Positions 41,322-63,630 of a stretch of 64,000 nucleotides of DNA are shown piece by piece. The stretch comes from a virus (lineage: Duplodnaviria > Caudoviricetes). Every line of letters begins with the position of its first letter. Positions within the stretch are counted from its first letter, which is position 1. The translations under genes and the position numbers were made by a program. The stretch lies in the IMG/VR virus record IMGVR_UViG_3300028903_000004, positions 59,437 through 123,436 of that record. One strand, given 5' to 3'. The notes beneath the pieces are model-generated. The model was not told the origin of the DNA. It saw nothing but the letters and a program-made list of their open reading frames with translations, and made no database searches.

Positions 41322-41352
41322 AAAAAAGCCAGCTAAAAGCTGGCATTTTTTT
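41322..41352 (-). terminator. Rho-independent terminator
   Basis: AAAAAAGCCAGCT-loop-AGCTGGC. Confidence 0.8.
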
Positions 41353-41358
41353 ATAATT

Positions 41359-41913: not shown

Positions 41914-41914
41914 A

Positions 41915-42328: not shown

Positions 42329-42336
42329 ATTTTTTT

Positions 42337-42681: not shown

Positions 42682-42682
42682 T

Positions 42683-43120: not shown

Positions 43121-43677
43121 TATAATTTAGATTTTAAAATAACTTTATAATTTTGTTCAATATCTTTTGTTCCAATGTTTTCAATTATATAATTTAAAAT
43201 AATAGCTTTTTCTTCACCACTTAAACTTTCTCTTTTAACACCATTAATTAATGTTTCAATTGCCGATGAAATATTTTTTTTATTAAATTTCGATGATAAT
43301 TCATCTAAATCTGGAATTTTATTTTTATTTATATCAGAAATATCTTGTTTTGGAATTATTTCCTTATTAGATAATTTTTTAGAAATAATATCTTCAACCA
43401 TTTTTTCCATTTTTAATTGAGCTTCATCAATATTTTCATCTTCTTCTTGCATTATAGGATACCTATCCCCATGACTATAAGGCGTTCCCGTATAACCATA
43501 TGGATATCTAAATTTTTGACGAGCAGTTTGAACAAACTTATCTGTTGTTTGAGCTGGAGCTGTTTTTATTTGTGATGTGGTTTCATGTGATTTATCACCA
43601 TCAATAATGCTGCCATCACTATCAATTAATTCATCAACATTTATTTTCTTTATGTCTTTTTTTTTAAATGTTCTCAT
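43120..43677 (-). CDS. Hypothetical protein
   Basis: 185-aa ORF; late promoter at 43694-43701. Confidence 0.6.
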   Translation of the reverse strand: MRTFKKKDIKKINVDELIDSDGSIIDGDKSHETTSQIKTAPAQTTDKFVQTARQKFRYPYGYTGTPYSHGDRYPIMQEEDENIDEAQLKMEKMVEDIISKKLSNKEIIPKQDISDINKNKIPDLDELSSKFNKKNISSAIETLINGVKRESLSGEEKAIILNYIIENIGTKDIEQNYKVILKSKL

Positions 43678-43737: not shown

Positions 43738-45645
43738 ATGAATGGATTTATTACAAAAGTCGATATTTCTGATAATAGGCAAGTTAAGCAATATGAAAGA
43801 ACTGAGACCCAACTATCAGGTTCAACTAAATTCGGCTTACCTTTTAGTGCACTAACTAACGGTCCTGATACTACTAATGAACATGAATATACTATTTATG
43901 AAGTTACTTCTGTTTTTTCAGGTAATACAGGTACAACTAATTTTACTTTCGGTGCAGTTTGGATGGAATTAGCTGAACCTTATATCTCTGCTATAACAAA
44001 TTTAAATAGTGGTGTTACTCAAAATCTAGGTCCTATTTATGTTGGATTTGATTCAACAGTTATTGATGGAAATACTGTTTATTTAAATTATACTGGAATT
44101 TCATATCCATTACAAGTTACGGCAATAACTGAAACTGCACCTGGTGTATTTACTGGTCGTTGTAGGTCTGAATATGTAACTTATTATACAGCAGGAAGTT
44201 TAGATTATACAGGTAGAACTATATGGGTTGATGTAAGCGGAATTACCAGAACTGAAAGACTTATTGTAACTAACAACCCACAAGTTGGATATGTTTTGAC
44301 TTGTGCCGATGCTGAAGGTATGGCGGATTGGAGTCCTATTTCTGCTGTTACTTCAGGGACAACATTTTGGAGTGGTGGTTCTGGAACATATGCTGTGGTT
44401 TTAAAATATAGTAATAGTAGTTCATCTGGAAAATTAAGTGTTAGCGAAGGTTCTGGGAATACAGCTTCTGGGGCGTATTCACATGCTGAAGGTGGTATAA
44501 ATCTTGCAACAGGCTTAGCATCACACGTAGAAGGAGGTTATAATAGTGCTATTGGTGATGTTTCGCATGTAGAGGGTTTGTATAATTCAGGCATGGGTAG
44601 TGGGGTACATGTAGAAGGTAGTACAAATAAAGGAATTGGAAATTATTCACACGCCGAAGGATATAAAACAACTTCTTATGCAAATTTTAGTCATAGCGAG
44701 GGTGATACCACAATAGCATCAGGTCTATCATCACACGCCGAAGGATATAAAACAACTTCTTATGGAAATTATAGCCATAGTGAGGGTAATTCCACAATAG
44801 CATCAGGTCTATCATCACACGCCGAAGGTGTTTCTACTAAAGCGATTGGTATTAATTCACATGCAGAAGGTAGTTCTACTACAGCAATTGGTAATAATTC
44901 ACATGCTGAAGGATACGAAACATTAGCTAATGGAACTTATTCACATGCTGAAGGATATCAAACAGTCGGTAATGGATTTGGTTCTCATATAGGTGGTTAT
45001 AGTGATGATAAAGGTGGATTAATTGCTGAAGGGGTAGCATCATTTATTCATTCATATTCAATTAAAGGTAATATATCTAAAGCATCTGGTAATTATAGTG
45101 CTATTTTAGGTGGACAAAATAATAATATTCAAAGTGGAGCAGCATCTTCAGCAATTATTGGGGGATATAATAATTTAATTATTGATACCGCACAAAGGTC
45201 AGTAATATTAGGTGGAAATTCAATAACAGCAGATACTAGTGATACTATTTTCGGCCAAAATATGACATTGTTTGGTGATTTACATGTTTGTGGTAGTACT
45301 TCAGTATTTGCAACCGAGGTTATTTTAGCTGAAGATAATAACATAATATTAAATTATAATGGAAGTCATGCATCCGCTATTGGGGGTGGATTTATAATTG
45401 AAAAAGGTAAACTAGATAATAGTAATATTATAATCAGTTCAACAACCACTGGCGATGTATCATTTAATACTGGAATAATTATTAATGGGGATAATGGATT
45501 TAGTCAACTAAGATTAATGCAAAACTATACACCAACTGATAGTAAAGATGATAATGGAGATGTTGGTTGTATTGCATGGGATGATAATTATTTATACATA
45601 AAGGTAAATACAGGATGGAAGCGAACAGCTTTAATTGAATGGTAG
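43738..45645 (+). CDS. Fibre/adhesin-like virion protein with 14-aa SHAEG (YadA-head-like) repeats
   Basis: About a dozen SH[AVS]EG units; C-terminal G..G.I.WD..YLYIK...W.R module. Confidence 0.75.
   Translation: MNGFITKVDISDNRQVKQYERTETQLSGSTKFGLPFSALTNGPDTTNEHEYTIYEVTSVFSGNTGTTNFTFGAVWMELAEPYISAITNLNSGVTQNLGPIYVGFDSTVIDGNTVYLNYTGISYPLQVTAITETAPGVFTGRCRSEYVTYYTAGSLDYTGRTIWVDVSGITRTERLIVTNNPQVGYVLTCADAEGMADWSPISAVTSGTTFWSGGSGTYAVVLKYSNSSSSGKLSVSEGSGNTASGAYSHAEGGINLATGLASHVEGGYNSAIGDVSHVEGLYNSGMGSGVHVEGSTNKGIGNYSHAEGYKTTSYANFSHSEGDTTIASGLSSHAEGYKTTSYGNYSHSEGNSTIASGLSSHAEGVSTKAIGINSHAEGSSTTAIGNNSHAEGYETLANGTYSHAEGYQTVGNGFGSHIGGYSDDKGGLIAEGVASFIHSYSIKGNISKASGNYSAILGGQNNNIQSGAASSAIIGGYNNLIIDTAQRSVILGGNSITADTSDTIFGQNMTLFGDLHVCGSTSVFATEVILAEDNNIILNYNGSHASAIGGGFIIEKGKLDNSNIIISSTTTGDVSFNTGIIINGDNGFSQLRLMQNYTPTDSKDDNGDVGCIAWDDNYLYIKVNTGWKRTALIEW
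44647..44828 (+). repeat. 84-bp tandem duplication within SHAEG repeats
   Basis: TCACACGCCGAAGG recurs at 44647, 44731 and 44815. Confidence 0.8.
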
Positions 45646-45665
45646 CAGTTTAAAATTAATTATTT

Positions 45666-47393
45666 ATGGGAGGACCAGGAAATATACGGAATTATTTTTT
45701 TAATAAAATAGACGCTAAACTTAGCAATAGCGAATTTTATGATTTTTATTTAGCTAGTGATGAATTTTCAGTCAAAATATTAGATGGAATAATATCTGGA
45801 GATAGTTTAATAGCCGAATTTGATTTTAGTAATCCAAATATTGCTCCATCAGGAATTACTTCAACTAGCACAATTTATAGTTTATCTACTTGGAATAAAG
45901 CTGTAAATACTGGTTTAACACTAAACAATATCGGGTTAACTGGTTTAGATAATGGATTAATTAAATATGAAAAAGACCCAGTTGATATTGCAAATACTGG
46001 ATTAACAAGTATTTTAACTGGTATTACAATGGAAATATTATCTGGTGAAACATCACTTATTTTACATCCTGTTAGTGGCTATACTGGACAATTTATTTAT
46101 CCTATCAATATTTTAAGTTCATCAACACTTGGTCATTATGCCCAATTATGTGGTGGATTTTATCAAGGATTTTATAAAATTGATGATAATAGTTATCAAA
46201 CATTACCAAATCGATTTGCTAAAGGTTGGACTGTTGAATTTTGGTTAAATAAAAACAATAATTGTTCTGGTTATACAGGTACAGTTTTAAATGATGTTTA
46301 TACTGGTAATACAGGATTTTTCTTTTATTTAGGTACTAGAGCAGAAAATAAATTTTGGAGTGTTTTTGAAGGATTGAATTCGGGTTCTACTTCTGCTTGT
46401 ACTTCTGGTTGTACTTATTGGTGTACTATTCCAAAAGAATATGAAATTAGAACAACATCTGGTTATCCATTAGACCCACCACCATTAACGATTTTTGATA
46501 TTACGAATAAATTTTTGATTTATAGTCGAGCACAAAACTCAAATAATAATTGTAATTGTGGCTGTGGAAATTCAGGTTTACGACAAAGTGACCCGTATAT
46601 TCAAAGGAAAGGTTATACTATTTGTAATTTTACTGGTGATAGTATTACCTTAACAGCAACCACAATGGAATTAGTTGATAAAAGAAATAAATTTACTATT
46701 TTTAGTCGAGCTACTGCTGGAAAAAATTGCACTTGTAATGGAAATTATCATTCTGGTGGTACAACCACTTGTAAATATAGTGGTGATTCGAGACCATTAA
46801 TGGAATTAGATTGGAAAGCTGATTTAGAAAATAATGCTTTTGGTTTAAGAATTAAAGAAGATGGTAGTATTGGATATAGAGCATTAAGGTTTAGTTGTAT
46901 AACTGCTACTACATCTGGCATAACAACAGTAAAAAGCGGAATAACAGTTGAGGAATCGTATAGTGCTAGCGGAATGGTTCAAAATGATAGATGGACCCAT
47001 GTGGCAGTAAAATGGGTTGCGGATACAAGACTTAATGATTGTGAATTATTATGGAAAGCACCGCGAAATGGAAAATTGATGTTTTATATTAATGGTCGTC
47101 TGAAATATGTTGTTAGAAATTGTAAAGAGATTATACCCAAAAGATTAAATGAATATAATGAAAAACAAGAAGGAGTGCCTTTTAATATAAGTATTGGTGG
47201 TGGAACTCAAGGATTGCTTGAATCAATGACATTTGATGGTCAAGATATGAAAGATTTGGGGTTATTGTTAGAAACATATTTTGCAGGGACTTTTATAGGT
47301 GGAATAAATAAATTCAGATTTTATGATGAACCATTGAGTTGGTGTGAAATTAAAAATAATTTTGAATTTGAATCTGAATACTTTGGAATCTAA
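45666..47393 (+). CDS. Virion protein with LamG/concanavalin-like elements and Cys-rich inserts
   Basis: WTVEFW, WTHVAV, FYINGRL, IGG, FIGGINKFRFYDEPL. Confidence 0.65.
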   Translation: MGGPGNIRNYFFNKIDAKLSNSEFYDFYLASDEFSVKILDGIISGDSLIAEFDFSNPNIAPSGITSTSTIYSLSTWNKAVNTGLTLNNIGLTGLDNGLIKYEKDPVDIANTGLTSILTGITMEILSGETSLILHPVSGYTGQFIYPINILSSSTLGHYAQLCGGFYQGFYKIDDNSYQTLPNRFAKGWTVEFWLNKNNNCSGYTGTVLNDVYTGNTGFFFYLGTRAENKFWSVFEGLNSGSTSACTSGCTYWCTIPKEYEIRTTSGYPLDPPPLTIFDITNKFLIYSRAQNSNNNCNCGCGNSGLRQSDPYIQRKGYTICNFTGDSITLTATTMELVDKRNKFTIFSRATAGKNCTCNGNYHSGGTTTCKYSGDSRPLMELDWKADLENNAFGLRIKEDGSIGYRALRFSCITATTSGITTVKSGITVEESYSASGMVQNDRWTHVAVKWVADTRLNDCELLWKAPRNGKLMFYINGRLKYVVRNCKEIIPKRLNEYNEKQEGVPFNISIGGGTQGLLESMTFDGQDMKDLGLLLETYFAGTFIGGINKFRFYDEPLSWCEIKNNFEFESEYFGI

Positions 47394-47414
47394 TATTTAT
47401 TAATAAATAATAGT

Positions 47415-48875
47415 ATGGCAAATGATAAATTAATTTTAAGGACATTATCAAGTCCATTTACATACCCTAATCCAGATAATACTAAAAATAGTGTATTAAG
47501 TTGGGAAGATGTTGACAATAACTTCATTTTCTTGAAAGGTAGGTCAATTTCTGGTTTAACATATGCAAATGATACCATAACTATTAAATTAACCGATGGA
47601 ACTACTTATCCAGCTGTAATTACTGGAATTAGTAGTGATACATTTGTTACTGGAGGTACTGTAATTGCAGATACTTTAATGTTGTATCGTAATGATAATG
47701 TTGTAATAACTATTGATTTAAATAGTGATGATTTATATTGGACTTCTGGTTCATCTGGTAATTATTCCATTAAGGCTAAGAATGATAGTGGATTAGATGC
47801 TATTGCAAATTATTCTATCGCACAAGGATATGGAACATTAGCTAATGGAATGGCTTCACATGCCGAAGGTTCTGCCACAACTGTTAATGGAAATGCTTCT
47901 CATGGCGAAGGTTATAATACAACAACTGTAGGTGATTTCTCACATTCTGAAGGCGAAATAACATTATCTTATGGTAAGTCATCTCATAGTGAAGGCTATA
48001 AAACAACAGCTCAAGGTGATTATTCACATACTGAAGGTACTTATACAATAGCAAATGGTAGTTATTCACATACTGAAGGTAGTTATACAACAGCTCAAGG
48101 AAATTATTCACATGCTGAAGGTTATACTACAACATCTGTAGGTACTAATTCACATGCTGAAGGTGAACAAACAATAACATTTGGTGTTTCATCTCATGCT
48201 GAAGGCTATAAAACAACAGCTCAAGGTGATTATTCACATGCTGAAGGTTATAGAACAACAGCATCAGGTAGTTCATCTCATGCTGAAGGTAGTTATACAA
48301 CGGCTAAAGGAAATTATTCACATGCTGAAGGTTATACTACAACATCTGTAGGTACTAATTCACATGCTGAAGGTTATAATTCAAGAACGATTGGTGATTA
48401 TTCACATAGCGAAAATTTTAATACATCTGCTATTGGTAATCATTCCCATGCTGAAGGTATTACAACTACAGCACAAGGACTTGCTTCACACAGTGAAGGT
48501 ATGTTTACCACTGCAATAGGTCAATATTCACATGCCGAAGGTTATATGTCAATAGCATCTGGTGATACTTCACATGTAATTGGTAGGAATAATTTTGCAG
48601 GTGGAAATTATTCTTTTGTTGGTGGTTATTATAATTATTTAACAAGTGAAGCTAATAATAGTGCGATTCTCGGTGGTTCACAAATTACTGGGTCATCACC
48701 AAATACCATGTATGTTGGTTATATTAATCTAACTACTCCTGGTGGAGTTCCATCAAATAGCGGTGATACTTCAGGAGAAATCGGTGCTATTAGGTGGGAT
48801 GGAGACTATTTATATATAAAAACAAATAAAAATGGGGGTGCGTGGGGTAGAATAATGTTAAATTATAATTTTTAA
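47415..48875 (+). CDS. Second fibre/adhesin-like protein with SHAEG repeats
   Basis: About 17 SHxEG-type units; LSWEDVDNNF N-terminal motif; same C-terminal module as 43738. Confidence 0.78.
   Translation: MANDKLILRTLSSPFTYPNPDNTKNSVLSWEDVDNNFIFLKGRSISGLTYANDTITIKLTDGTTYPAVITGISSDTFVTGGTVIADTLMLYRNDNVVITIDLNSDDLYWTSGSSGNYSIKAKNDSGLDAIANYSIAQGYGTLANGMASHAEGSATTVNGNASHGEGYNTTTVGDFSHSEGEITLSYGKSSHSEGYKTTAQGDYSHTEGTYTIANGSYSHTEGSYTTAQGNYSHAEGYTTTSVGTNSHAEGEQTITFGVSSHAEGYKTTAQGDYSHAEGYRTTASGSSSHAEGSYTTAKGNYSHAEGYTTTSVGTNSHAEGYNSRTIGDYSHSENFNTSAIGNHSHAEGITTTAQGLASHSEGMFTTAIGQYSHAEGYMSIASGDTSHVIGRNNFAGGNYSFVGGYYNYLTSEANNSAILGGSQITGSSPNTMYVGYINLTTPGGVPSNSGDTSGEIGAIRWDGDYLYIKTNKNGGAWGRIMLNYNF
47981..48374 (+). 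repeat. 210-bp (5 x 42 bp) internal duplication
   Basis: 47981-48164 is nearly identical to 48191-48374. Confidence 0.8.
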
Positions 48876-48901
48876 TGAATAATAATAAATAAAAAAGAAT
48901 T

Positions 48902-49183
48902 ATGGCACTAAAAAACACAAATGGAAATTATTTACGAATTAGTAGTTTATTTATTGATGTTGTAAATCCTAATATCTTAATAGCACGTATGGAATTATGG
49001 GCTAATCAAGAAATTAGATTTAACCCTTCAAATTTTGATAAACCTCAAGTTTTACAAAAACAAATTGATTCAATTATAATGTTTGAAGCAGGATTAGATT
49101 ATACCTCAATAAGAGATAGTATTATCACTAAAGCTTATTTATATTTGAAAGAAAACGGTTATTCAGATTGGGAAGATTGCTAA
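48902..49183 (+). CDS. Small fibre-associated hypothetical protein
   Basis: 93-aa ORF after fibre gene, ends AYLYLK...WEDC. Confidence 0.55.
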   Translation: MALKNTNGNYLRISSLFIDVVNPNILIARMELWANQEIRFNPSNFDKPQVLQKQIDSIIMFEAGLDYTSIRDSIITKAYLYLKENGYSDWEDC

Positions 49184-49210
49184 TTTTTGGATATTTATAA
49201 ATAAAAAGAT

Positions 49211-49582
49211 ATGAACTTTTTTATTAATAAAAATGCAACATTACCATTGTTAAAAATGGAACTGATTCAGGATGGGCGATATGATTTTAGAAACTTTCAT
49301 GAGCTAATCCAAAATTCAGATATATTTTTTTCAATGACTGATATTGATACTGGTTATAAGAAAATTTGTAGGGAACCTGCTGGCTGCGCGCTAAAACCTA
49401 ATTCTTGCAATGAAGAAGAGGAATATTATATTACATATCAATTCACAGAAAGGGATACAAATAGACCTGGTTCATATCGCGGATTATTTGAAATAGTATT
49501 TCTTGATGGTTCAGGAACTTTAATAGTTCCAATTCGAGAAGAGTTAATAATTCATATTTTAGATGGCTCAATTAAGGTGTAA
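49211..49582 (+). CDS. BppU-like/Ig-like structural protein
   Basis: FFINKNATLP...YQFTERDT..PG.Y.G.F; late promoter at 49191. Confidence 0.5.
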   Translation: MNFFINKNATLPLLKMELIQDGRYDFRNFHELIQNSDIFFSMTDIDTGYKKICREPAGCALKPNSCNEEEEYYITYQFTERDTNRPGSYRGLFEIVFLDGSGTLIVPIREELIIHILDGSIKV

Positions 49583-49603
49583 CTTTTTACACCTTTTTTT
49601 TTT
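49574..49603 (+). terminator. Rho-independent terminator
   Basis: AAGGTGTAA-loop-TTACACCTT plus T-run. Confidence 0.85.
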
Positions 49604-49632
49604 GACTTTTTTACTTTAATATTGTATATTTG
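49601..49632 (+). promoter_or_regulatory. Bacteroidetes-type promoter TTTG-N20-TATATTTG for DNA polymerase
   Basis: TTTG 49601-49604, TATATTTG 49625-49632. Confidence 0.7.
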
Positions 49633-49714
49633 TAAGATTAGTAATCTACATCCATATTAACTAATATTTGGATTTTTAGATTATATCGAATAATAAAATA
49701 TTAAAGTATTAAAA

Positions 49715-52700
49715 ATGAAAAAAGAAGTTCCGATTGAACAAATTGAATCCTTTTTAGAAGGTAAAGACCAACAAAAATACATTGTAGCAGTTGAAGGTTC
49801 TTATGGAAGTCAATATGTTAATTTAATAATTAATAACCCTGAAAAAGGAAAAATAATTGAAAAAGTTAAGTATAAACCATTTCTTTGGGCTAAACCAGAG
49901 GGAATGTTAAGTTTATTCAAAGGAAACAAAGAGACTATTAGAAAAGCCATGAGTGATGCTGGTATTAAAGCTAAAAAACTTAAAATATCGAACGATGAAG
50001 GCTTTATTCCAGAAAGAATGGCTAATGGTTTTACTTTATTAATTGAAGGAAATTGCACTTATGGTGAATTAATTAACTTCTTCAAAAGAGGCGGTGTAGA
50101 CATTTTTTCAGAGCAACATAAAAAAAATTTTATTACGCTATCAATTGTTGAACAGTTTATGATTCAAACTGGTAAACGATTATTTAAAGGAATGGAAGAT
50201 TATGATGACCTTCATAGACTTCAATTTGACCTTGAAACCACGGGTCTTAATCCTAAAATTAATAGAATATTCGCTATAGGTATTCGAGATAACCGTGGTC
50301 ATGAAATAGTTTTAGAAGTAGATGGTGAAACCGAAGAAGAAATTAAAAATAAAGAATTACTTGCAATTGAAACCTTTTTTGCTATTGTAGATGAATTAAA
50401 ACCAGATATAATTTCTGGCTATAATTCTGAAAATTTTGACTTTGATTTTTTTATAGAAAGGTGTCATCAATTAGGAGTTAATATAGAAAATATCGCGATT
50501 ACACTAAACCCAGAATATAAAATACAAAGAAAAAAATCAACAGTAAAATACGGTTCTGAAACTGAATATTATGAACAAACTTTAATGTATGGATATAATA
50601 TTATTGATATTTATCATGCTGTACGCAGAGCTCAAGCTATTAATTCAAATATTAAAAAAGCTGACTTAAAGTATATTACAAAATATTCAAAGATTAATAA
50701 ACCTAACCGAGTTTATATTAAAGGTGATAATATTTTTCATACATGGTCAGATAAAGAAAACAAATACGCTTTTAATGATATTAACGGAGATTGGTATAAA
50801 ATAACTGATAAACATCCTCTAAAAGAAGGGTATCAAATAGTAGAAGGTAAATACATAGTTAAACGCTATCTTTTAGATGACCTTTGGGAAACGCAGCATG
50901 TAGATTTCTCATTTAATCAGGCATCATTTTTGCTTTCTAAAATTGTTCCGACCAGTTATAGTAAAATTTGTACAATGGGTACTGCTTCGTTATGGAAGCT
51001 TTTAATGTGTGCATGGTCATATGAACAAGGTTTGGGTATTCCTGATTATGAAGAAAAAAGAGATTTTACTGGTGGACTTTCAAGACTTTTGGTTATTGGT
51101 TATACAAAAGGATTTGTTAAATTTGACTATGCTGCTCTTTATCCTAATATTGAATTAACTTGGGATATTTTTCCTGAACTTGATATTAGTGGGGTTATGA
51201 AAGGTATGTTACTTTATATAGCTATAACCCGTGATAAATACAAAGACCTTAAAAATGTTCATGAAAATAGGGTAAAAGAAATTGAAAAAAATATGCTTGA
51301 ATATGAAGCTAAAGATGAGTTAACTCCTGAATTAAGAAATAAATGCCTTAAAGCAATATCTAAACATGATAAATTAGCAAAAGATGCCGATAAAAAACAA
51401 TTACCTATTAAAATCTTAGCTAACTCATTTTTTGGGTCCTTCGGTGCTTCATATATTTTTCCGTGGGGTGATATTAATTGTGCTGAAGAAACTACTTGTA
51501 GGGGTCGTCAATATTTACGTTTACTTATAAGTCACTTTAAAGAAAAACATGGTTTTCGTCCTTTAGTTGGTGATTCGGTTACTTATGATACCCCAATATA
51601 TGTAAAATGGAAAAATAATGGGATGATTGATATTATTCCGATATGTGACATTTTTAACGAAAATTCAAATAATTTTGATAAATATAAACTTAGAGATTTA
51701 GAAGAAAAACCATATCAAGTTTTAACAGTTAACGGTTGGAAAGAGATAAACTATGTTTATAAACACGAATCAAATAAACCCATTCACAGAATTTCAACAA
51801 AAAATAGAATGGTATGTGTAACAGAAGACCATTCACTATTTCAAAATGGAAAACAAATTAAACCATCATCACTTAAACGAAATGATTTAATTGATGTTAG
51901 TGAAATTGAACATTTAAACAAAGAAGGGATTTATGACGAAGATTTATATTTTTTATTTGGTTATTTTTTGGGTGACGGCTCTAGTGTCTACGGTAATAGA
52001 AAACAATATTATAAATCCAAAAAAACTGGAAAGATTAACATAAATAAAGGAAAAAGATACGATTTTAAAATATCTGGTCAAAATTTAGAAAAACTAGAAA
52101 GATTAAAAAAAATTATTGAAAGTAGGTTTAATATATCTGTTAAAATTAAAGACCATTTAAAATCATCAAAAGTTTACAATTTAGTTTCCAATGATAAAAT
52201 GATAGTTAAATTTTTTGCCGATAATTTTTATACATCTTATAGGGAAAAAAGAATTCCATATTTTATTTTAAATTCATCAAAAAAAGCCAAATTAGCGTTT
52301 TTGAATGGTGTTTTTTCATCTGACGGATATGGTGATGATTTAGAAAGTGCATCGGATATCGGAATGAAATCGCAAGTGGCAATGGCTGGAATTTCATATT
52401 TAATGGATTGTTTAAATATAGATAAAAAATTAAAATTACGAAAAGATAAAAACTTCATTTCACTTAAACTAAAAAATAGAAATAGAAATAATTCAAACTT
52501 TACGAATAAAACAAAAATGAAATCCAATGAAGTTTGGAATAACGAAATAATTCATAATAAAAATAAATTTGTCTATGATATTTCAACCGAAGACGGAACA
52601 TTTATTGGTGGAATTGGTGGGGTGAATTTAAAAAATACTGATGGTTTTAACTTCGCAATTCCAGAAAATATCGATTCAGTTGAGTATGTTTCAACTGGAA

Positions 52701-54175
52701 ACCATAGGTTCACTGAAAAAGGTAAACTCTATAAAGGTATTAAAGCCGTTGTAGCAGAATTTAATGACAAATATATGATTGGGCGTATGGGTCTTGATAT
52801 TGATGAAATAGGTGAAGCGACAATTAATTTTTCTCGTAAAAATTATGCCGACCTTATTGATGGTGAAATAAAACTTGTAGGAAATACCGTAAAATCTAAA
52901 AAAATGGAACTTTATATTGAAGAATTCATAGATAACGGTATTAGGATGTTACTTGAAGGTAGGGGATATGATTTTATTGAATACTATTACGAATATATTG
53001 ATAAGATTTTTAATTTCCAAATCCCAATTATGAAGATAGCATCTAAAGGTCGTATTAAACAAAGCATTGATGAATATAAAATGAAATGTAAAAAACTAAA
53101 TAAAGCTGGTAATCCAATGCCTCGTCAAGCTCATATGGAATTGATTATTAAAGATAATATTAATGTTAATTTAGGTGATACGATATATTATGTTAATACT
53201 GGGAATAAAAAATCACATGCCGATATTAAAACAATTAAAAATAAAGAAACTGGTGAAATAGAAGTTGAATTTAATTGTATTTTAATTCCTAATGAGCAAA
53301 TTGAAAATGACCCAGATTTAACCACTGACAAATATAATGTTGCCAAATATATTGACAAATTTAACAAACGAATTAAGCCATTATTGGTCGTTTTTCATCC
53401 TGATATTAGAGAAAATATTCTTATTGATACTAAAATTGATAAATCAACCAAAAAAGTTATATTGGAAGAAAGAAGTATTTTTACTAGAAAAGAAACTGAA
53501 CTTGTTTCTGGCATGCCTTACAATCCAGAAGACCAAGATGATTACGAATATGATTTAATGAAAATGGAAGATAAAGAAATAAGGTTTTGGATTTCGATAA
53601 ATAAAGTTCCAAATAATATAGATTTAGATAAATGGAAATCAATTAAAGCTGATTATTTAGAAAGGCTAGAAAAAGCTAAAATCAATGGATTAGAATATGA
53701 AATGTTTGAACTTGAAAATAAATTAAAACGTTTAGAAGTAGAAGATTTTGATGCTTTTTCAGCATTATTTGATAATGATATGAATGCTGCTTATTTGTGG
53801 ATTATTGAAAATCTTAAAGTTGATTTGGATTTTGATGAAACATCTAAAGAATATATATTAAAATCATTAAAATGGGATGAAAAAATATGTAATTTAAATG
53901 ATATATTCAAATATAAAAGTATTGCCGAAGAAAGAGCTTTATTTTATTCAAGTTTAGGTAGTGATATTACAATAGAAGAAGCATATAAAGAATGGGAAGA
54001 ATATCAATATCAAAAAATGGCTGAAAAATCTGGAATGTCATTGGAAGATTATAAAAGATATATTATAGAATGGGAAAAAAAGTATAGAAAAGAAAAAACA
54101 AAAGCTATTGTACATGCTGACAGATATGATGATAGTGAATCTGATAATGATGATATTGATGGTGATGATGAATAA
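49715..54175 (+). CDS. polB: Family B DNA polymerase with intein
   Basis: ExoI FDLETT, ExoII YNSENFD, FDYAALYPN, KILANSFFG, GD/TDG split by intein. Confidence 0.93.
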   Translation: MKKEVPIEQIESFLEGKDQQKYIVAVEGSYGSQYVNLIINNPEKGKIIEKVKYKPFLWAKPEGMLSLFKGNKETIRKAMSDAGIKAKKLKISNDEGFIPERMANGFTLLIEGNCTYGELINFFKRGGVDIFSEQHKKNFITLSIVEQFMIQTGKRLFKGMEDYDDLHRLQFDLETTGLNPKINRIFAIGIRDNRGHEIVLEVDGETEEEIKNKELLAIETFFAIVDELKPDIISGYNSENFDFDFFIERCHQLGVNIENIAITLNPEYKIQRKKSTVKYGSETEYYEQTLMYGYNIIDIYHAVRRAQAINSNIKKADLKYITKYSKINKPNRVYIKGDNIFHTWSDKENKYAFNDINGDWYKITDKHPLKEGYQIVEGKYIVKRYLLDDLWETQHVDFSFNQASFLLSKIVPTSYSKICTMGTASLWKLLMCAWSYEQGLGIPDYEEKRDFTGGLSRLLVIGYTKGFVKFDYAALYPNIELTWDIFPELDISGVMKGMLLYIAITRDKYKDLKNVHENRVKEIEKNMLEYEAKDELTPELRNKCLKAISKHDKLAKDADKKQLPIKILANSFFGSFGASYIFPWGDINCAEETTCRGRQYLRLLISHFKEKHGFRPLVGDSVTYDTPIYVKWKNNGMIDIIPICDIFNENSNNFDKYKLRDLEEKPYQVLTVNGWKEINYVYKHESNKPIHRISTKNRMVCVTEDHSLFQNGKQIKPSSLKRNDLIDVSEIEHLNKEGIYDEDLYFLFGYFLGDGSSVYGNRKQYYKSKKTGKININKGKRYDFKISGQNLEKLERLKKIIESRFNISVKIKDHLKSSKVYNLVSNDKMIVKFFADNFYTSYREKRIPYFILNSSKKAKLAFLNGVFSSDGYGDDLESASDIGMKSQVAMAGISYLMDCLNIDKKLKLRKDKNFISLKLKNRNRNNSNFTNKTKMKSNEVWNNEIIHNKNKFVYDISTEDGTFIGGIGGVNLKNTDGFNFAIPENIDSVEYVSTGNHRFTEKGKLYKGIKAVVAEFNDKYMIGRMGLDIDEIGEATINFSRKNYADLIDGEIKLVGNTVKSKKMELYIEEFIDNGIRMLLEGRGYDFIEYYYEYIDKIFNFQIPIMKIASKGRIKQSIDEYKMKCKKLNKAGNPMPRQAHMELIIKDNINVNLGDTIYYVNTGNKKSHADIKTIKNKETGEIEVEFNCILIPNEQIENDPDLTTDKYNVAKYIDKFNKRIKPLLVVFHPDIRENILIDTKIDKSTKKVILEERSIFTRKETELVSGMPYNPEDQDDYEYDLMKMEDKEIRFWISINKVPNNIDLDKWKSIKADYLERLEKAKINGLEYEMFELENKLKRLEVEDFDAFSALFDNDMNAAYLWIIENLKVDLDFDETSKEYILKSLKWDEKICNLNDIFKYKSIAEERALFYSSLGSDITIEEAYKEWEEYQYQKMAEKSGMSLEDYKRYIIEWEKKYRKEKTKAIVHADRYDDSESDNDDIDGDDE
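51575..52636 (+). mobile_element. Intein with LAGLIDADG endonuclease in PolB catalytic GDTD motif (354 aa)
   Basis: Starts SVTYDTPI, has TEDHSL block B, FGYFLGDG and LNGVFSSDG, ends VYDIST...LKN before Thr. Confidence 0.92.
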
Positions 54176-54199
54176 AAAAGGGCTCGAAAGCCCTTTTTT
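54174..54199. terminator. Bidirectional terminator
   Basis: AAAAAAGGGCT-CGAA-AGCCCTTTTTT. Confidence 0.88.
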
Positions 54200-54201
54200 A
54201 A

Positions 54202-55374: not shown

Positions 55375-55453
55375 ATAAATCTTTTTATTATAAATATTTG
55401 ACTAAATAGAAAAAAAGTTGTATTTTTGTATTTAATTAAATATTTATGAGTAT

Positions 55454-55618
55454 ATGAGTAAATTTAATAAAAAGCCAGTTAGAATAAATGTTTTATTAGA
55501 TAATGATTTACGTAAAGCATTTAAAAAACATTGTATTGATAATGATTACATATTATCTGAAAGAATTCGTTATTTAATAATTAAGGATTTGGAAAATGAA
55601 AAAGAGAAAACAATTTGA
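55454..55618 (+). CDS. Ribbon-helix-helix (CopG/Arc-like) DNA-binding protein, not in ORF track
   Basis: MSKFNKKPVRINVLLDNDLRKAFKKHCIDNDYILSERIRYLIIKDLENEKEKTI*, 54 aa. Confidence 0.65.
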   Translation: MSKFNKKPVRINVLLDNDLRKAFKKHCIDNDYILSERIRYLIIKDLENEKEKTI

Positions 55619-57209: not shown

Positions 57210-57323
57210 CTTGTCTATATAAACGTTCACGTTCTTCTGATGTTGGACCCATAATAGTTTTTATTATAAATATTTAACTAAATAATAAAAAAGTGATATT
57301 CTTATTGCTAATTTTACTGAATA

Positions 57324-57587
57324 TTAGCTATTATACAATTCTACGATTATTTTTATAGCAGTATTAATATCATAAAAAGAAATTTCAGGTACTAGAACTT
57401 GATTACCAACAATTATAACTGGGATGTTTTCACTTTTAGTTAATTTATATAATTTTAGAAAATCTTTTCCACCTTTTTCAGTATTAACATTAACTTTTTC
57501 GTATGGAATTTTTAATTCATCAAGTTTTTCCATAAGTTTTTTGCAATATGGGCAATATTCGATGTAAAAAACCTTAACCTTTTTCAT
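57324..57587 (-). CDS. Glutaredoxin-like protein
   Basis: CPYC active site, NIPVI. Confidence 0.85.
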   Translation of the reverse strand: MKKVKVFYIEYCPYCKKLMEKLDELKIPYEKVNVNTEKGGKDFLKLYKLTKSENIPVIIVGNQVLVPEISFYDINTAIKIIVELYNS

Positions 57588-59463
57588 TTTCGTCTTTTTT
57601 TAATTGTTCTATGTAATTTAATATCATTCTTTCTTCTTCTGATATTTCTTTTATAGGAGTATCACCCATTATAGTAGAAATAATTTCTTTTTTATTTTGT
57701 AAAATGTTCCACATTCTTAAAGAAATAGTATCTTTAAATAATTGATAATAAACGGTTACGTTATTATTTTGTCCGATACGATAAGCACGGTCTTCGGCTT
57801 GCTCATTATTTCCTGGTACCCAATCAAATGAATTAAATATCACAATATTTGATACTGTTAGATTTATACCTACGCCAGCAGATTTAATATTACCAATAAA
57901 AACCTTAATTTTTGGGTTGGTCATAAAATTATCGACAGCATTTTGTTTTTCTTTTGTGGATAATGCTCCGTAATGTACAACGCATTCATTACCAAAATGT
58001 TCTTGCAATTCAAGTAATTCATCAGTAAAATTAGTAAATATAATTACTTTTTGATTTTGTTCTATTGCATTTTCTGCTAATTCTATTGTATAAGGAATAG
58101 CTTCCATTGCAATGAATTGTCTTAGAAGAATTAATTCAATTAAATCACGTTGTAATGTCCCATCCGTAAATTCTATTCCATTTTTTTCTGCTTCTTCCCT
58201 TTTTTTATCAATATATTCATCCCATAACTCATTATATCGTTCCCAAGCTTTTTTGCTTAATTCTTGAAGTACTGGTATAATGGTTTTTTCTGGCATATCC
58301 AAAACATCTTCTTTTTTTCTTCTTAGGATGATATTTTTTGTTTTATTTGAAAGCTCATCTAAATTACTTGCACCATCAGTTAACCATATTTGCTTTCTTT
58401 GACCATTTTGAAGCTGTTTAAAGAACTTTTTTCCAGCACAATATCTTTTAGCAAAAAATACCCAATTATCAGCTATAGGTGCTTTAATTATCTTTAAAAG
58501 GTTAAAATAGTCCATAGGACGATTGGCAATTGGTGTTCCAGTTAATAGCCATACTTTATTTATTCCATGATTAATACATAAATCGGACATTATTTTGCCT
58601 CTAATCGATTTTGGGTTTTTAAGGTAATGTGCTTCATCAATAATACATAAATCAAATTTATGATTAGCAATTTCTTGTTTAAATTCAATTACAAGGTCAG
58701 TTGGTTTTTCCTTTTTGCCTCTCCTTTTGTTTAAAGAATGAAAGTTCTTTAAAATATCATAATTAATAATTGTAAATTTATTTGGTTTCCATTTACTACC
58801 AGAAATAATTGAAGTATGGTCTGTAAACATGTTAATTTCTCGTTCCCAATTTATTTTAACACTAGAAGGGCAAACAATTAATATTTTTTCTACACCAGAT
58901 TCTAATGCAGCAATAATTGCTTGGTAACTTTTTCCTAACCCCATATCGTCAGCCAAAATACATCCATTTCTTGATAATAAAAATTTAATACCTTCTTTTT
59001 GATGATTATATGGGTTTCTATGCAAAGTATCAAGGTCAATATATTTTTGAAAATCAACATCAATATTGATAGGTTCTAGATAAGGGTCATCAATTAGTTG
59101 AGTTTTTGGGACCCAATACATTTTAGATTTTTCTTGATTTTGTTTTACCTTTCCATAAATATGTAAACTTTTTTCTGTTTCTGCGAGTATATATTGAATT
59201 AATATACGTTTTGGCGTAAAAGATAAATTTTCTTTTCTTTTTAGTTCTTCTCCTAGAAATTCAGAAATTTCTATAATTCGATTTATTTTAATTGGTTCTT
59301 TATTGAAATTATCAATGATATATTTTGATTGGGTTTCAGTTAAGCGTAATTTACCATTTTTGTTAAATTCCTTTTGCATTAATAAAATATAAGGATTCTT
59401 ACCCTTATAACTTTTTAATAACTCAAGAGCTGATTTATCCTTAATATCATCCAATTTAATCAT
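57574..59463 (-). CDS. SNF2-family (DEAH) helicase/ATPase
   Basis: LADDMGLGKS, DEAH, LTGTP, GVGINL, QAEDRAYRIGQ. Confidence 0.92.
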   Translation of the reverse strand: MIKLDDIKDKSALELLKSYKGKNPYILLMQKEFNKNGKLRLTETQSKYIIDNFNKEPIKINRIIEISEFLGEELKRKENLSFTPKRILIQYILAETEKSLHIYGKVKQNQEKSKMYWVPKTQLIDDPYLEPINIDVDFQKYIDLDTLHRNPYNHQKEGIKFLLSRNGCILADDMGLGKSYQAIIAALESGVEKILIVCPSSVKINWEREINMFTDHTSIISGSKWKPNKFTIINYDILKNFHSLNKRRGKKEKPTDLVIEFKQEIANHKFDLCIIDEAHYLKNPKSIRGKIMSDLCINHGINKVWLLTGTPIANRPMDYFNLLKIIKAPIADNWVFFAKRYCAGKKFFKQLQNGQRKQIWLTDGASNLDELSNKTKNIILRRKKEDVLDMPEKTIIPVLQELSKKAWERYNELWDEYIDKKREEAEKNGIEFTDGTLQRDLIELILLRQFIAMEAIPYTIELAENAIEQNQKVIIFTNFTDELLELQEHFGNECVVHYGALSTKEKQNAVDNFMTNPKIKVFIGNIKSAGVGINLTVSNIVIFNSFDWVPGNNEQAEDRAYRIGQNNNVTVYYQLFKDTISLRMWNILQNKKEIISTIMGDTPIKEISEEERMILNYIEQLKKDENEKG

Positions 59464-59592
59464 AATATTAAATATAGTTATTTATATCAAAAAATCAACT
59501 TTATTTTTTATCTAAATTATTGATATATTTATATCAAAGTTCATTTTTTACTAATTGGTTTTAAACAATAATGAAATATGAATTGGTTTATT

Positions 59593-59751
59593 ATGAGTAA
59601 AGAAAGTTTAGAAAACGAAAAAAAAGCATTGGAGGAATGGCTAGAAAAAGTTAAAGAAAATAACTCCAATGAATATGAAGATTATTATCTTAGAGAATAT
59701 ATTAACGAGCAAATTAATAAAATAAATAAAGAACTTGAAAAATATATATGA
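59593..59751 (+). CDS. Small helical hypothetical protein (52 aa), not in ORF track
   Basis: MSKESLENEKKALEEWLEK...LEKYI*; ATATTTAT at 59525. Confidence 0.45.
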   Translation: MSKESLENEKKALEEWLEKVKENNSNEYEDYYLREYINEQINKINKELEKYI

Positions 59752-59862
59752 ATAATTTTTTAGCAAATATTAAATTAAAATTAATTATTATCTAAATTAT
59801 TGAAAATATTAATTTATTTTGGTTTAATATTGTTTTTTAGATATTTATTTAAAAAACGAATT

Positions 59863-60381
59863 ATGGGTCAAAATAAAGTACCAATTAATAGAGCAGATAA
59901 ATTCTTTTCTGGTGAAGATTTTGATTTAGAAATTGAAATGGGTCGCGAATATCTTGAAGGTGATTTGAATATGACTGTAATCTTATTCAGAGTAGATAGG
60001 ATTAGTACTGAAACTGATAGCATTTATGGAGAAACTGTTAAGGATGGAATTCGTTATCTACCACCAGTTGAAATTAAGTGTTTGGTTAATCTTATGGAAC
60101 CAGAGAATAAAACCTATAATTCTGATGGAAGTTTAAGATATTTGCAAGACGGACAATTAACGCTAACTATTTATCAAAAACATTTAGAAGAACTTGGTGT
60201 TGATATTACTTATGGCGATTATATAGGATATCAAGTTACAGAATCTGAAATGAGATATTTTAGTGTTGTTAATGACGGAATAAAGAATTATAATAATTCA
60301 AACACAATTCTTGGTTATAAAGGAGCATATAGAAGAATTTTATGTGCACCAGTTGATAAATCAGAATTTCGCGGTCTTTAA
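59863..60381 (+). CDS. Neck/head-closure protein (gp14-like)
   Basis: Likely start MGQNK after late promoter 59841; DSIYGE motif; lies before tail-terminator-like gene. Confidence 0.55.
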   Translation: MGQNKVPINRADKFFSGEDFDLEIEMGREYLEGDLNMTVILFRVDRISTETDSIYGETVKDGIRYLPPVEIKCLVNLMEPENKTYNSDGSLRYLQDGQLTLTIYQKHLEELGVDITYGDYIGYQVTESEMRYFSVVNDGIKNYNNSNTILGYKGAYRRILCAPVDKSEFRGL

Positions 60382-60405
60382 AATATGTACTAAAAGTGTT
60401 ATAAT

Positions 60406-61443
60406 ATGGGCGCACCAAAAGGGTTTAGAAAAAATATAAAGCTTTATCCGCAAAAAGTAGGAGTGGAAAGGCGACAAGAGATGTTGGACGCGATTAACTA
60501 CAAAGCTAGTTATTTGCCTAGGGGAGTTATGTATGAAGATATGGACGCTAGTTTTATAGATTTCATTAAAAAAGAAGTTAATTTTTCTGTTAATGGTGAA
60601 ACCATTCCAGTTATTTTCCTTACAATTCAAAGATGGGCTGAATTGGCAAGAACATGGGAATTTACTGGTGAATTTAAAGATTTAAGTGTTCCATTCATTA
60701 CAATTGTAAGAAAACCAGATGTTCAAGAAGGAAGTAATCAACAAGGATTATGGAATATACCAGGTCGTCCTACATTTACTTATATTAAAGTTCCGCGTTG
60801 GGATGGCGTAAGAAAAGGTATTGATGTGTATAAAATTCCACAACCAGTTTCGGTAGATATTACATATGAAGTAAGAATATTTTCAAATAAAATGAGAGAA
60901 GTCAATAATTTCAACACCAAAATGCAACAAATTTTTAGGTCTAGACAGCATTATATTAATCCTAATGAACATCCAATGCCATTACACTTAGAAAATATTG
61001 GCGATGAAAGTAATATTGATGATTTTGAAAATCGTAAATTTTATGTTCAATTATTTGAGGTCTTGCTTAAAGGATATATCATGGATGAAAAAGAATTTGA
61101 AGTCGTTCCAGCAATAGATAGAACAATGCTATTTACTGAAGTTACCGAATCATTAAATAATTCCCCAAAAATCGTTATTAATTCAAATGAAGATAATAAA
61201 ACTGTAACATTTACTGTTATCGCAAAACCAATGTCAGAACCAACATTTTCAACTAAAATAGATTTTAATTACCGATTTTTAAGACTTAATTTAATAAATA
61301 ATGTTACTTCAGTAGATTTATTACTTGATAATGAACCAGTACATGTGCCATTTGTTGCAATGGCTGGTCAGACATTACATATCAAAATCCATAGGGATAT
61401 AAATAAGACTGCAAAATTTCAGTTACTAGGTAATTTGATATAA
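60406..61443 (+). CDS. Tail completion/sheath terminator protein (gp15-like)
   Basis: IPVIF...RW...PFITI...PVSVDITYEVRI pattern. Confidence 0.55.
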   Translation: MGAPKGFRKNIKLYPQKVGVERRQEMLDAINYKASYLPRGVMYEDMDASFIDFIKKEVNFSVNGETIPVIFLTIQRWAELARTWEFTGEFKDLSVPFITIVRKPDVQEGSNQQGLWNIPGRPTFTYIKVPRWDGVRKGIDVYKIPQPVSVDITYEVRIFSNKMREVNNFNTKMQQIFRSRQHYINPNEHPMPLHLENIGDESNIDDFENRKFYVQLFEVLLKGYIMDEKEFEVVPAIDRTMLFTEVTESLNNSPKIVINSNEDNKTVTFTVIAKPMSEPTFSTKIDFNYRFLRLNLINNVTSVDLLLDNEPVHVPFVAMAGQTLHIKIHRDINKTAKFQLLGNLI

Positions 61444-61445
61444 CC

Positions 61446-62801
61446 ATGACTTGTAATAATAGTAATTCAAATATTAACAAAACTTTTATATTAGAGCCGT
61501 TAAGTATTACAAGTGGTTCAACAACATTAACGGCTTCTACTGCTTTATACACAAACCAAGTGAAAAGTTATAGTGGTAATACTACTATTACAATGGGTAC
61601 TAATATCATTAGTTTTAATCATGATATATCTATTGAAGGTAATGTTACCGCCGAAATTTATTACGGGGATGGTAGCCAATTATCTGGAGTTGCAAAACAT
61701 GATTATTATACAACCGCAGTTACATTGGATGATACGATATTGTATTTTAATAGAAATGACCAATTATCTGCATATACATTAGATTTAAGAAATTTATTAT
61801 TTACAGGTGGTTCTGGATTAATATACGCTAGACATGTATTAAAGAATACTGATGTAATTAACGACTCATTACCGAGTAATTTATTTGCTGGCGAACCTTT
61901 TGTTAATACAGCTGAAGGTATCATGTATTTTTCAGGAGTTACCTCTTCTGCAATTTCTGGTTGGACTAAATCTGATTCTGGAAGTACATTTTGGGAAGTA
62001 GGTTCTAATCTTTATGATTTAAATATTAGACATAGAATTACAAAATATGAAAATCAAACTGGTAATGGATTAGTTGGTAAATTTCTTTCTGGTAGTACTG
62101 ATGGTTTTGTATTAGCTAATATTTCAGATATTAAAGGTATTGATACGTATGTAACCGCATTTACATATAATAATAATATACTTACTATTTCACAAAATGA
62201 TAAACCAAATTTAACAGCATATATTAATTCATTTACAGGTTTAACAGTTAATGGTGATTTAAATATTACAAGTTTAAATACAAATAAAGTTGTTTATACT
62301 ACAAATTCTGGAATTTTAACGACTAATTCTACATTTGAATATGATGATAATCTTAATAAATTAAATGTTAATAATATTGATGTTGTCAATGATTTAGTTG
62401 TATATGGTAATTTAACTATTTGGGGTCAATCTGTATCAGCCTTTACATCACAATTGTATGTTGAAGATAAAAATATTACATTAAATTGGAATCCAACTGG
62501 AAGTACTTCTTCAACCTCAATTCAAGCAGGTTGGACAATTCAAGATGGTGATGGTTTAACTGGTGATATAAATTTAGAAATTGTAAGGATGAAAAACCTT
62601 ACAGGATTAACAGTAAATGAAATTCCAGATGTAACAGAATATGCTGGACAATCAACAGGATATGCAAATAGAGGTTGGATTACACAATTAAATGATATTG
62701 TAATTAGAAGTACGGATATTACCGATACTGGTACTGCTGGTAGTATTAATGGTGTAAGAGTATTGGCTGAATTTGATATTTTAGATGGCGGTACTTATTA
62801 A
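61446..62801 (+). CDS. Tail fibre-like virion protein
   Basis: YYGDGSQL, L.AGEPFVNT, VEDKNITLN, C-terminal DGGTY; S/T/G-rich. Confidence 0.65.
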   Translation: MTCNNSNSNINKTFILEPLSITSGSTTLTASTALYTNQVKSYSGNTTITMGTNIISFNHDISIEGNVTAEIYYGDGSQLSGVAKHDYYTTAVTLDDTILYFNRNDQLSAYTLDLRNLLFTGGSGLIYARHVLKNTDVINDSLPSNLFAGEPFVNTAEGIMYFSGVTSSAISGWTKSDSGSTFWEVGSNLYDLNIRHRITKYENQTGNGLVGKFLSGSTDGFVLANISDIKGIDTYVTAFTYNNNILTISQNDKPNLTAYINSFTGLTVNGDLNITSLNTNKVVYTTNSGILTTNSTFEYDDNLNKLNVNNIDVVNDLVVYGNLTIWGQSVSAFTSQLYVEDKNITLNWNPTGSTSSTSIQAGWTIQDGDGLTGDINLEIVRMKNLTGLTVNEIPDVTEYAGQSTGYANRGWITQLNDIVIRSTDITDTGTAGSINGVRVLAEFDILDGGTY

Positions 62802-62931
62802 TTTTAAAAATATTGTTTAAATAAATGAATAAATAAATATATCCAAATGTAAGTTTAGGCATATTTATTTATAAGCGGTTATATAATCGTAAAATAAATA
62901 ATCCTATATAGGAGTTTAAAACGTCATATAT

Positions 62932-63630
62932 ATGGCAGAAAGAAAAACCACTTTCTTAATTAAAAGAAGTAATGTTCCAGGTAAAGTTCCATCGGCTGGC
63001 GACTTATTATTAGGTGAATTAGCATTGAACACTGCCGATGTAATTTTATATGCATCTGGGACAACCGTAAATGATATTTTACCGATTGGATGGGATAGAG
63101 TATCGCGAACAGGTGATACCATGACAGGTCCATTAATAATTAATTCTGATTTAACAGTAAATGGTAACATTTCACTTAAAACTAATACTATAACAGCTAT
63201 AACTGATACTATATTAAGTGCTTCAACAAATTATGAAATACCAACAACTAAAGCTGTATATGATTATATCACTAATAACAACTTTAATAAAATTACTGTG
63301 ACATTTGATGGCTGTTATACTTATATCCCAACAAACACAATGGCAAAAACGATGGCAGACGGCAATTATAATATAATAGCTTGGAAAATTGTTGGTAATA
63401 ATCAAACAAATAGTGGATGTACAGCTTCAATTGATGTATTAATTAATGGAGTAAGCGCAGTTGGAAGTGGTAATAAGCCAAGTCTAACTAATGCTACAGC
63501 AAATTATGCAACAATATCTGGTTGGACTACAACGGTAATTAATGAGAATGATATAATTGGTTTAAATATTGCAAGTAATAATGATGCAACATATTTAAAT
63601 GTTGTTATTATAACTCGAAAAAATAATTAA
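62932..63630 (+). CDS. Tail fibre-like protein
   Basis: N-terminal IKRS..PGKVP....L..GELALNTAD motif typical of T4-like fibre subunits; GDTMTGPL. Confidence 0.7.
   Translation: MAERKTTFLIKRSNVPGKVPSAGDLLLGELALNTADVILYASGTTVNDILPIGWDRVSRTGDTMTGPLIINSDLTVNGNISLKTNTITAITDTILSASTNYEIPTTKAVYDYITNNNFNKITVTFDGCYTYIPTNTMAKTMADGNYNIIAWKIVGNNQTNSGCTASIDVLINGVSAVGSGNKPSLTNATANYATISGWTTTVINENDIIGLNIASNNDATYLNVVIITRKNN

Follow-up and report, generated by a model that had tools for sequence, protein, structure and literature searches.

The short protein motif [Ser/Thr]-[Gly/Ala]-x-Thr is present in large excess in virion proteins encoded by IMG/VR record IMGVR_UViG_3300028903_000004, a sequence of 123,436 bp from an uncultured tailed jumbo phage. 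The right-hand 64 kb of this record (positions 59,437 to 123,436, here called the window) was analyzed. The excess is specific to the motif and is confined to outer virion proteins and their add-on domains. Positions of the motif turn over among relatives, and the motif co-occurs with a GT-B glycosyltransferase in two very distant phage lineages. In the form Phi-[Ser/Thr]-[Gly/Ala]-x-Thr, where Phi is a hydrophobic residue at position -1, the motif may be an acceptor sequon for phage-encoded glycosylation of the virion, and the chances of this are put at about even.

The motif in virion proteins

The motif was counted as [ST][GA]xT in the translated open reading frames (ORFs). The counts were compared with 2000 whole-protein shuffles, with shuffles within blocks of 40 and 20 amino acids (aa), and with permuted and neighboring motifs. 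Seven carrier ORFs (Table 1) together hold 63 motifs, and 12.1+-3.3 are expected from whole-protein shuffles (z 15.2, about fivefold). With shuffles in 20-aa blocks, the expectation is 13.2+-3.4 and z is 14.6. Six of the seven carriers are enriched individually (p<=0.009, whole-protein shuffles), and 47415-48875 alone is not significant (5 versus 3.3, p=0.23). Across the whole record, the other 135 ORFs hold 13 motifs with 14.8 expected. Depletion in non-virion proteins, which was hinted at by the window alone (1 versus about 9), was ruled out by this same count. The original prediction had been based on hand counts of 16, 14, 13, 6, 5, and 4 motifs in six of the carriers, with 12 of the 13 placed at the N-terminal end of the 635-aa protein, and on a lack of motifs in the polymerase, terminase, portal, and SNF2 helicase. 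All of these were reproduced. Its four capsid motifs are also present, and the real total is 5, with SAHT at aa 135 added. For the 451-aa protein it had estimated about 2 motifs by chance, close to the 1.7 obtained by shuffling.

Permuted motifs are near expectation (T.[GA][ST], 18 versus 12; [ST].[GA]T, 13 versus 12), and variants in spacing are near or below it ([ST][GA]T, 11 versus 12; [ST][GA]..T, 8 versus 12). The version that ends in Ser, [ST][GA].S, was found 19 times with 11-13 expected. Each of the subtypes SGxT, TGxT, SAxT, and TAxT is over-represented separately (z 4.4-14.2). Ser or Thr precedes 72% of all [GA]xT triplets in the seven carriers, and the residue at -1 is hydrophobic in 60% of the copies versus 33% in the background. 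Position x is variable, and Pro was never seen there. The extended form, Phi-[ST][GA]xT, in which position 2 is Gly or Ala and position 4 is Thr and not Ser, occurs 38 times in the carriers with 3.7 expected. The motif had been described as different from the host-type sequon of Bacteroidota, D-[ST]-[AILVMT]. This sequon is indeed at expectation in the seven carriers (14 versus 13.5), as is NxS/T. Diverse codons are used at all fixed motif positions, so the signal lies at the protein level and a DNA-level motif was ruled out. Ser at motif position 1 is encoded by TCT in 21 of 41 cases, and across all Ser of the seven carriers in 85 of 315. No published description of the motif was found in literature searches.

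The carriers are mutually dissimilar in an all-against-all BLAST comparison, save for a motif-poor YadA-like part that is common to 43738-45645 and 47415-48875. Their folds also differ, and include an HK97-type capsid insertion, a ConA-like jelly roll, and a YadA-like fiber. This agrees with the original prediction that the motif occurs in unrelated folds and is not a single domain repeat. A common domain as the source of the motif was ruled out by the BLAST comparison. Spacing between copies is irregular (4-83 aa) with no regular period. This speaks against a tandem structural repeat, such as a collagen-like, beta-helix, or YadA head repeat, as does the lack of similarity among carriers outside the YadA-like part.

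In the capsid protein, all of the motifs are within the large insertion, at aa 135-329 of 597. Among 74 members of the capsid family, the insertion holds 239 motifs versus 69.5 in shuffles (3.4x) and the conserved core holds 12 versus 27 expected (0.44x). The insertion accounts for 93% of 261 capsid motifs. Control motifs in the insertion reach 1.6-2.0x, and the wider [ND]GxT only about 2x. The positions turn over: a capsid protein has 3.5 motifs on average, and these are scattered over 58 site entries. The motif sites of the query capsid are less conserved than the remainder of the protein.

The N-terminal domain of the 635-aa fiber protein keeps 5-15 motifs in 31 homologues, and motif columns 27, 47, 84, 91, and 158 are conserved. 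In an AlphaFold2 (AF2) model of this domain (pLDDT 75), nine of the 12 motifs are in coil, two are at strand ends, and one is within a strand. A Foldseek search with the model gave nothing useful. The model of the 575-aa protein did match the CBM40, pentraxin, and neurotoxin Hc lectin folds. Members of this family retain 4-21 motifs down to 28% identity. Some of their columns are strongly conserved, with Ser and Thr or Gly and Ala exchanged and x free, and others are lineage-specific gains or losses. One loop, PNNK, has become TGNT or SGNT in separate sequences. The 575-aa protein also has a Cys-rich run of four xxxT units at aa 239-254, SGST-SACT-SGCT-YWCT, which is kept as TGCT-SGCT-SGCT in close homologues. 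The run lies in an insert that was modeled with low confidence, and may serve to bind a metal or to form a disulfide. Among the 14 homologues listed for the 469-aa protein (38 distinct ones were found), 2-9 motifs are present, and this protein has a weak match to the DNRLRE domain. A family was not detectable for the 451-aa protein.

The motif excess is a trait of the clade. In two complete relatives, strongly enriched ORFs number 6 (G001, 368 kb) and 10 (G002, 363 kb), with counts such as 33 versus 6.2, and many of them are not homologous to the carriers of the window. The tail sheaths of these two relatives (G001 144678-147512 and G002 205930-208920) are enlarged to 944-996 aa and have 9 and 8 motifs with 2.5 and 1.3 expected. 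All of these are N-terminal to the conserved Pfam sheath core. Counts are 0-1 in the tube, portal, terminase, and neck proteins, and the G002 tail tube has none. From what is known of T4 gp23 and gp18, we take the capsid insertion domain and the non-core sheath domains to face outward. In line with the expectation that the motifs would be found in exposed loops, they lie on add-on domains predicted to face outward, and mostly in loops.

Table 1. Features of the window discussed in the text. Positions are those of the window; expected numbers of motifs are from shuffles. GT, glycosyltransferase.
Position	Strand	Feature	Evidence and remarks
5786-7564		T4-type large terminase	
7866-9935		Portal	
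11718-13463		Prohead protease (Peptidase_S77) with intein with LAGLIDADG domain	581 aa
15004-16797	+	Major capsid protein, T4 gp23-like, insertion at about aa 121-335	Pfam Gp23, E 5.5e-71; 5 motifs
19883-21292	-	469-aa clade-conserved late protein	4 motifs versus 0.7 expected; ATATTTAT at -23
24805-25569		Sigma-70 region-2-like protein	Pfam, E 0.0012; directly downstream of conserved GT2
25578-26384	-	GT2	Pfam GT2, E 6.4e-12; clade-conserved
26362-27480	-	GT-B-like protein	Weak GT1 match; PDB 8xsg, putative GT; clade-conserved
27892-28482, 29374-30243	-	Two clade-conserved proteins	PhoH between
28521-29414	-	PhoH	
30230-31228	-	UDP-GlcNAc 2-epimerase	Pfam
31225-31803	-	Methyltransferase	Pfam
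33640-34389, 34386-35960	-	GT2 domains	Pfam
36067-37719	-	GT2_5 and GT4 fusion	Pfam; of the two relatives, only in G001
40025-41251	-	Soluble GT-B, candidate initiating transferase	phrog_7162, E 5.9e-40
43738-45645	+	635-aa fiber protein; motif-rich N-terminal domain and YadA-head-like repeat part	12 motifs in aa 1-242
45666-47393	+	575-aa receptor-binding-type protein; ConA-like/CBM40-like jelly-roll core	16 motifs versus 1.3 expected
47415-48875	+	486-aa YadA-head-like fiber protein	Pfam YadA_head, E 1.5e-9; phrog_25468; 5 motifs
49715-54175		DNA polymerase	1486 aa; LAGLIDADG domain at aa 742-834
57574-59463		SNF2 helicase	
61446-62801	+	451-aa protein	14 motifs versus 1.7 expected
62932-63630	+	232-aa protein with tail-fiber-like N-terminus	PHROG tail fiber families, E 6e-6 to 1e-4; 6 motifs versus 1.1 expected

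Glycosyltransferases and their distribution

The glycosyltransferase (GT) genes of the window are confirmed by Pfam and PHROG searches (Table 1). The GT-B encoded at 40025-41251 has weak Pfam matches that are below the cut-off (Glyco_transf_4, E 0.016; Glyco_trans_1_2, E 0.066). It is 66% identical to its homologue in G001, 49% to that in G002, and 36%, over the full length, to that in LR756501, a 735-kb phage. Both G001 and G002 keep this gene as well as the sigma-like gene, GT2 25578-26384, GT-B-like 26362-27480, and the two clade-conserved proteins. That GT2 and the GT-B-like protein are found in neither the outgroups nor LR756501. The genes at 30230-37719 form a variable glycan module with the epimerase, one or more methyltransferases, two GT2 genes, and the fusion, and both G001 and G002 lack the part at 30230-35960. 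No transmembrane-like segment was found in any ORF of 24327-42328, and no flippase, oligosaccharyltransferase, or lipid-carrier enzyme was found among the Pfam families of the GT cluster, which fits direct transfer in the cytoplasm. The GTs of this phage are encoded close to its structural genes, with 2.5 kb between the end of the GT-B gene and the fiber genes. Nothing useful came of PDB sequence searches, for which the queries were the three conserved GTs and the 469-aa protein, or of an NCBIfam search.

Three motif-positive genomes were compared with six motif-negative genomes. The GT-B at 40025-41251 is the only non-housekeeping protein of the window that is present in all of the positives and absent from four T4-like outgroups without the motif. 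The original prediction had made the whole GT cluster (25578-41251) the partner of the motif. A link is found with the GT-B and, within the clade, with GT2 25578-26384 and GT-B-like 26362-27480. It does not extend to 30230-35960, since both complete relatives lack that region and keep the motif. Enrichment was also absent in relatives without the conserved GT, as had been expected. There is no enriched ORF in phi92, immuto, Mel-JY01, RM378, LR756508 (484 kb), or LR756511 (595 kb), and none among the fiber, baseplate, sheath, and head proteins of T4 (27 observed versus about 25 expected). A generic property of fibers was ruled out by T4, phi92, and the outgroups.

LR756501 has only 7 proteins in common with the window, and its capsid protein matches at 20% over 40% of the length. 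It has at least nine ORFs with a specific [ST]GxT excess (for example, 24 versus 2.7, 13 versus 1.4, and 16 versus 2.7) and flat controls, and its motifs have the same hydrophobic preference at -1. Of six IMG/VR relatives of the LR756501 GT, four have motif-rich ORFs (29 versus 5, 37 versus 4.5) at most 10 kb from the GT gene. The LR756501 count excludes four entries of the raw list that were removed as false positives. One is a 1196-aa collagen-like protein (LR756501.1 391944-395534) with hundreds of GPT, GPQ, and GPV triplets and 60 false matches to the motif. The others are three giant ORFs (111378-124287, 411185-419677) with period-3 Ser/Thr/Gly repeats. All four mimic the motif and need masking in surveys.

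The phage and its late genes

The completeness of the record is 36% according to CheckV, and the GC content of the window is about 28%. A megablast search of the phage collection with the window as query gave nothing useful. The nearest deposited phages, LR756508, Microcystis phage Mel-JY01, Flavobacterium phage immuto, and Rhodothermus phage RM378, have at most about 40% capsid identity over conserved parts. Hundreds of relatives are present in IMG/VR, among them complete genomes of 290-370 kb. The moraphages, a lineage of large phages known from aquatic samples and not from culture, group with reference phages of the T4 group and are predicted to infect Flavobacteriia of the Bacteroidota. 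They have four core GT orthogroups, for which the target was left open between DNA and virion (PMC12619734). The phage of this record is likewise large, uncultured, aquatic, related to the T4 group, and equipped with GTs, and may belong to the same lineage or to a sister or nearby one. A motif and a link between GTs and virion proteins are given here and not in that paper.

The intein-bearing prohead protease of the window has a shorter homologue in G001, of about 241 aa, with an alignment that covers only 0.2 of the length. For the DNA polymerase, the homologues in G001 and G002 cover only 0.4-0.5 of its length, which points to one or more inteins or endonuclease inserts.

The late-promoter-like 8-mer ATATTTAT is located 20-28 nt upstream of the start codons of structural genes. 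It precedes 17 ORFs in the window (for example, 5786, 11718, 13604, 19883-, 43738, 47415, and 54202-) and is the most over-represented upstream 8-mer. It precedes the carriers 19883-21292, 43738-45645, and 47415-48875, and likewise the terminase, protease, and neck genes. The sigma-like protein at 24805-25569 is probably a late sigma factor, because it is conserved in the clade and occurs also in immuto, Mel-JY01, and LR756508.

Possible roles of the motif

A signal for protein modification is favored because the excess is specific, the carriers are unrelated, only add-on domains are involved, motif numbers are kept while sites turn over, and the motif tracks the GT-B. If the motif is modified, and if the modification is a sugar, soluble phage GTs would O-glycosylate surface proteins of the virion in the host cytoplasm. 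The GT-B at 40025-41251 would attach the first sugar to the motif Ser or Thr on outward-facing domains of the capsid, sheath, fibers, and receptor-binding proteins. GT2 25578-26384, GT-B-like 26362-27480, and the module at 30230-37719, with its epimerase and methyltransferase, would then extend and vary the glycan. More broadly, divergent jumbo and huge phages of Bacteroidota may share a cytoplasmic, sequon-directed O-glycosylation of proteins. The GT-B would read the motif and variable GT modules would diversify the glycan. The result would be a glycan-coated particle, whose sequons turn over like the glycan-shield sites of enveloped animal viruses. This broader proposal is tentative and is held at a little under even chances.

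Several observations weigh against glycosylation. The modification is predicted from sequence and not from chemistry. Distant homologues of the GT-B are found without the motif in phi92 (gp164, annotated as GT-B fold, 26% identity) and LR756511 (22%). The co-occurrence is based on two independent lineages only, both of which probably infect Bacteroidota. The GT genes do not have the late box, as no ATATTTAT is found within the minus-strand block 24805-43120, and the sole copy that serves this block is at its head, before 43120-43677. The GT genes are interleaved with genes for PhoH, a GMP-reductase/IMPDH-like protein, dUTPase, and an HD hydrolase, surroundings that are likewise typical for GTs that modify DNA. 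Confidence in the AF2 models is low precisely at the densest motif segments, as in that of the 575-aa protein. Lastly, the conservation of several motif columns to 30% identity and the frequent hydrophobic residues at -1 and x would also fit a structural role.

Such a role would be that of a small structural element (a strand end, turn, bulge cap, or trimer-interface contact) that is reused, unmodified, in beta-rich fiber and decoration domains, with the GTs acting elsewhere. This is considered rather unlikely. In the 575-aa family, SGDT at 126, [ST]GxT at 137, and SGIT at 424 are kept to 28-50% identity, as are the N-terminal columns named above for the 635-aa protein. In fiber families, conservation is somewhat higher for motif residues than for other Ser, Thr, and Gly. 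Hydrophobic residues are preferred at -1 and x, and the motifs are often at strand ends in the AF2 model. A structural element does not readily account for the presence of the motif in unrelated folds, with different sets of proteins in G002 and LR756501, and the interchange of Gly and Ala is unfit for a turn that requires a positive phi angle. In the capsid, the motif sites vary more than the remainder of the protein, yet their number is about 3x above chance. The motif is also absent from the fibers of T4, phi92, immuto, and LR756508, and it tracks one enzyme family.

It is considered unlikely, to a somewhat greater degree, that the motif is the site of another modification or ligand (phosphorylation, nucleotidylation, ADP-ribosylation, or a host surface component), with the GTs glycosylating phage DNA and the co-occurrence reflecting shared ancestry or host range. 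T4-type DNA glucosyltransferases are GT-B enzymes too, and the position of the GT genes among nucleotide-pool genes, without the late box, would suit enzymes of this kind. DNA and virion targets are both left open for the core GTs of moraphages (PMC12619734). On the other hand, no other enzyme of the window matches the distribution of the motif: the nucleotidyltransferase-like 259-1035 is not in G001, and the zinc-ribbon protein 18473-19309 is not in G002. The only ThyA-like ORF of the 123-kb record, which lies beside the window, reads PFNIASY, with the Asn of an ordinary thymidylate synthase, and gives no sign of a dCMP hydroxymethylase and no support to hydroxymethyl-base glycosylation, in a record that is only 36% complete. 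Multiple GTs, an epimerase, and a methyltransferase together make an oligosaccharide, whereas DNA bases usually carry less. An artifact of Ser/Thr/Gly-rich low-complexity or collagen-like sequence is highly improbable and was rejected for the window proteins. Such artifacts do occur, as the GPT triplets and period-3 repeats of the excluded LR756501 ORFs illustrate. In the window, though, the excess persists under block shuffles, there is none for permuted motifs, copies are irregularly spaced, and Pro does not occur at x, and in LR756501 at least nine ORFs with flat controls remain after the repeat ORFs are removed.

Glycosylation of the virion by the phage would have a precedent in mycobacteriophages, whose capsid and tail-tube subunits are reported to be glycosylated by GTs of the phages themselves (Freeman et al. 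2023, Cell Host Microbe 31:1216, as cited in PMC12619734). As described in PMC12619734 and PMC11256854, those phages also have their own soluble GTs near structural genes, with cytoplasmic virion proteins as proposed targets and a glycan coat. In those accounts, the glycans are at the C-terminal ends of subunits in capsid and tail tube. In the present phage, the motif is internal and in multiple copies, with at most 16 in one protein of the window and 33 in one of relatives. Most copies are in fibers. It is present on fibers, receptor-binding proteins, the sheath, and capsid add-on domains and not on the tube, whereas the mycobacteriophage tail tube is described as glycosylated. The hosts differ as well, being Actinobacteria for the mycobacteriophages and probably Bacteroidota here, where the glycosylation is predicted from sequence.

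Bacterial systems can also be compared. The general O-glycosylation system of Bacteroidota uses the sequon D-[ST]-[AILVMT] and is periplasmic and lipid-linked. It is similar in that a short sequon directs the O-glycosylation of many unrelated proteins, in what is presumed to be the host phylum. The phage differs in that its cluster has no gene for a membrane protein, its virions are assembled in the cytoplasm, and the host sequon is not enriched. Serine-rich repeat adhesins are glycosylated in the cytoplasm by multiple GTs, with initiation by the GT4 enzymes GtfA/GtfB and stepwise extension, and autotransporters are heptosylated by Aah/TibC. In these systems, soluble GTs act directly, at many sites, on Ser/Thr-rich, beta-structured surface proteins that are folded or still folding, and a GT-B enzyme initiates while others extend, as may be the case here. 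Their acceptors are Ser-x dipeptide repeats or a strand-loop-strand motif, whereas here the acceptor would be a defined four-residue motif. No significant relation in sequence to GtfA, GtfB, or TibC was found beyond weak Pfam GT4/GT1 matches, and no dedicated search was made.

The significance of the motif depends on its role. If it is structural, it would be a new recurrent building element of fiber domains. Should DNA be the substrate of the GT-B, the motif would stay a clade-wide signal in want of an explanation. In the literature searched, mycobacteriophages are the sole documented case of phage virion glycosylation, and no sequon is mentioned for it. If the motif is indeed a sequon, a short countable signal tied to one enzyme family would allow virion glycosylation to be predicted from the genomes of thousands of large phages that have not been cultured, with a candidate enzyme and its substrates already named. 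This would bear on how phage surfaces evade recognition by hosts or grazers, stick to polysaccharide matrices, and resist proteases.

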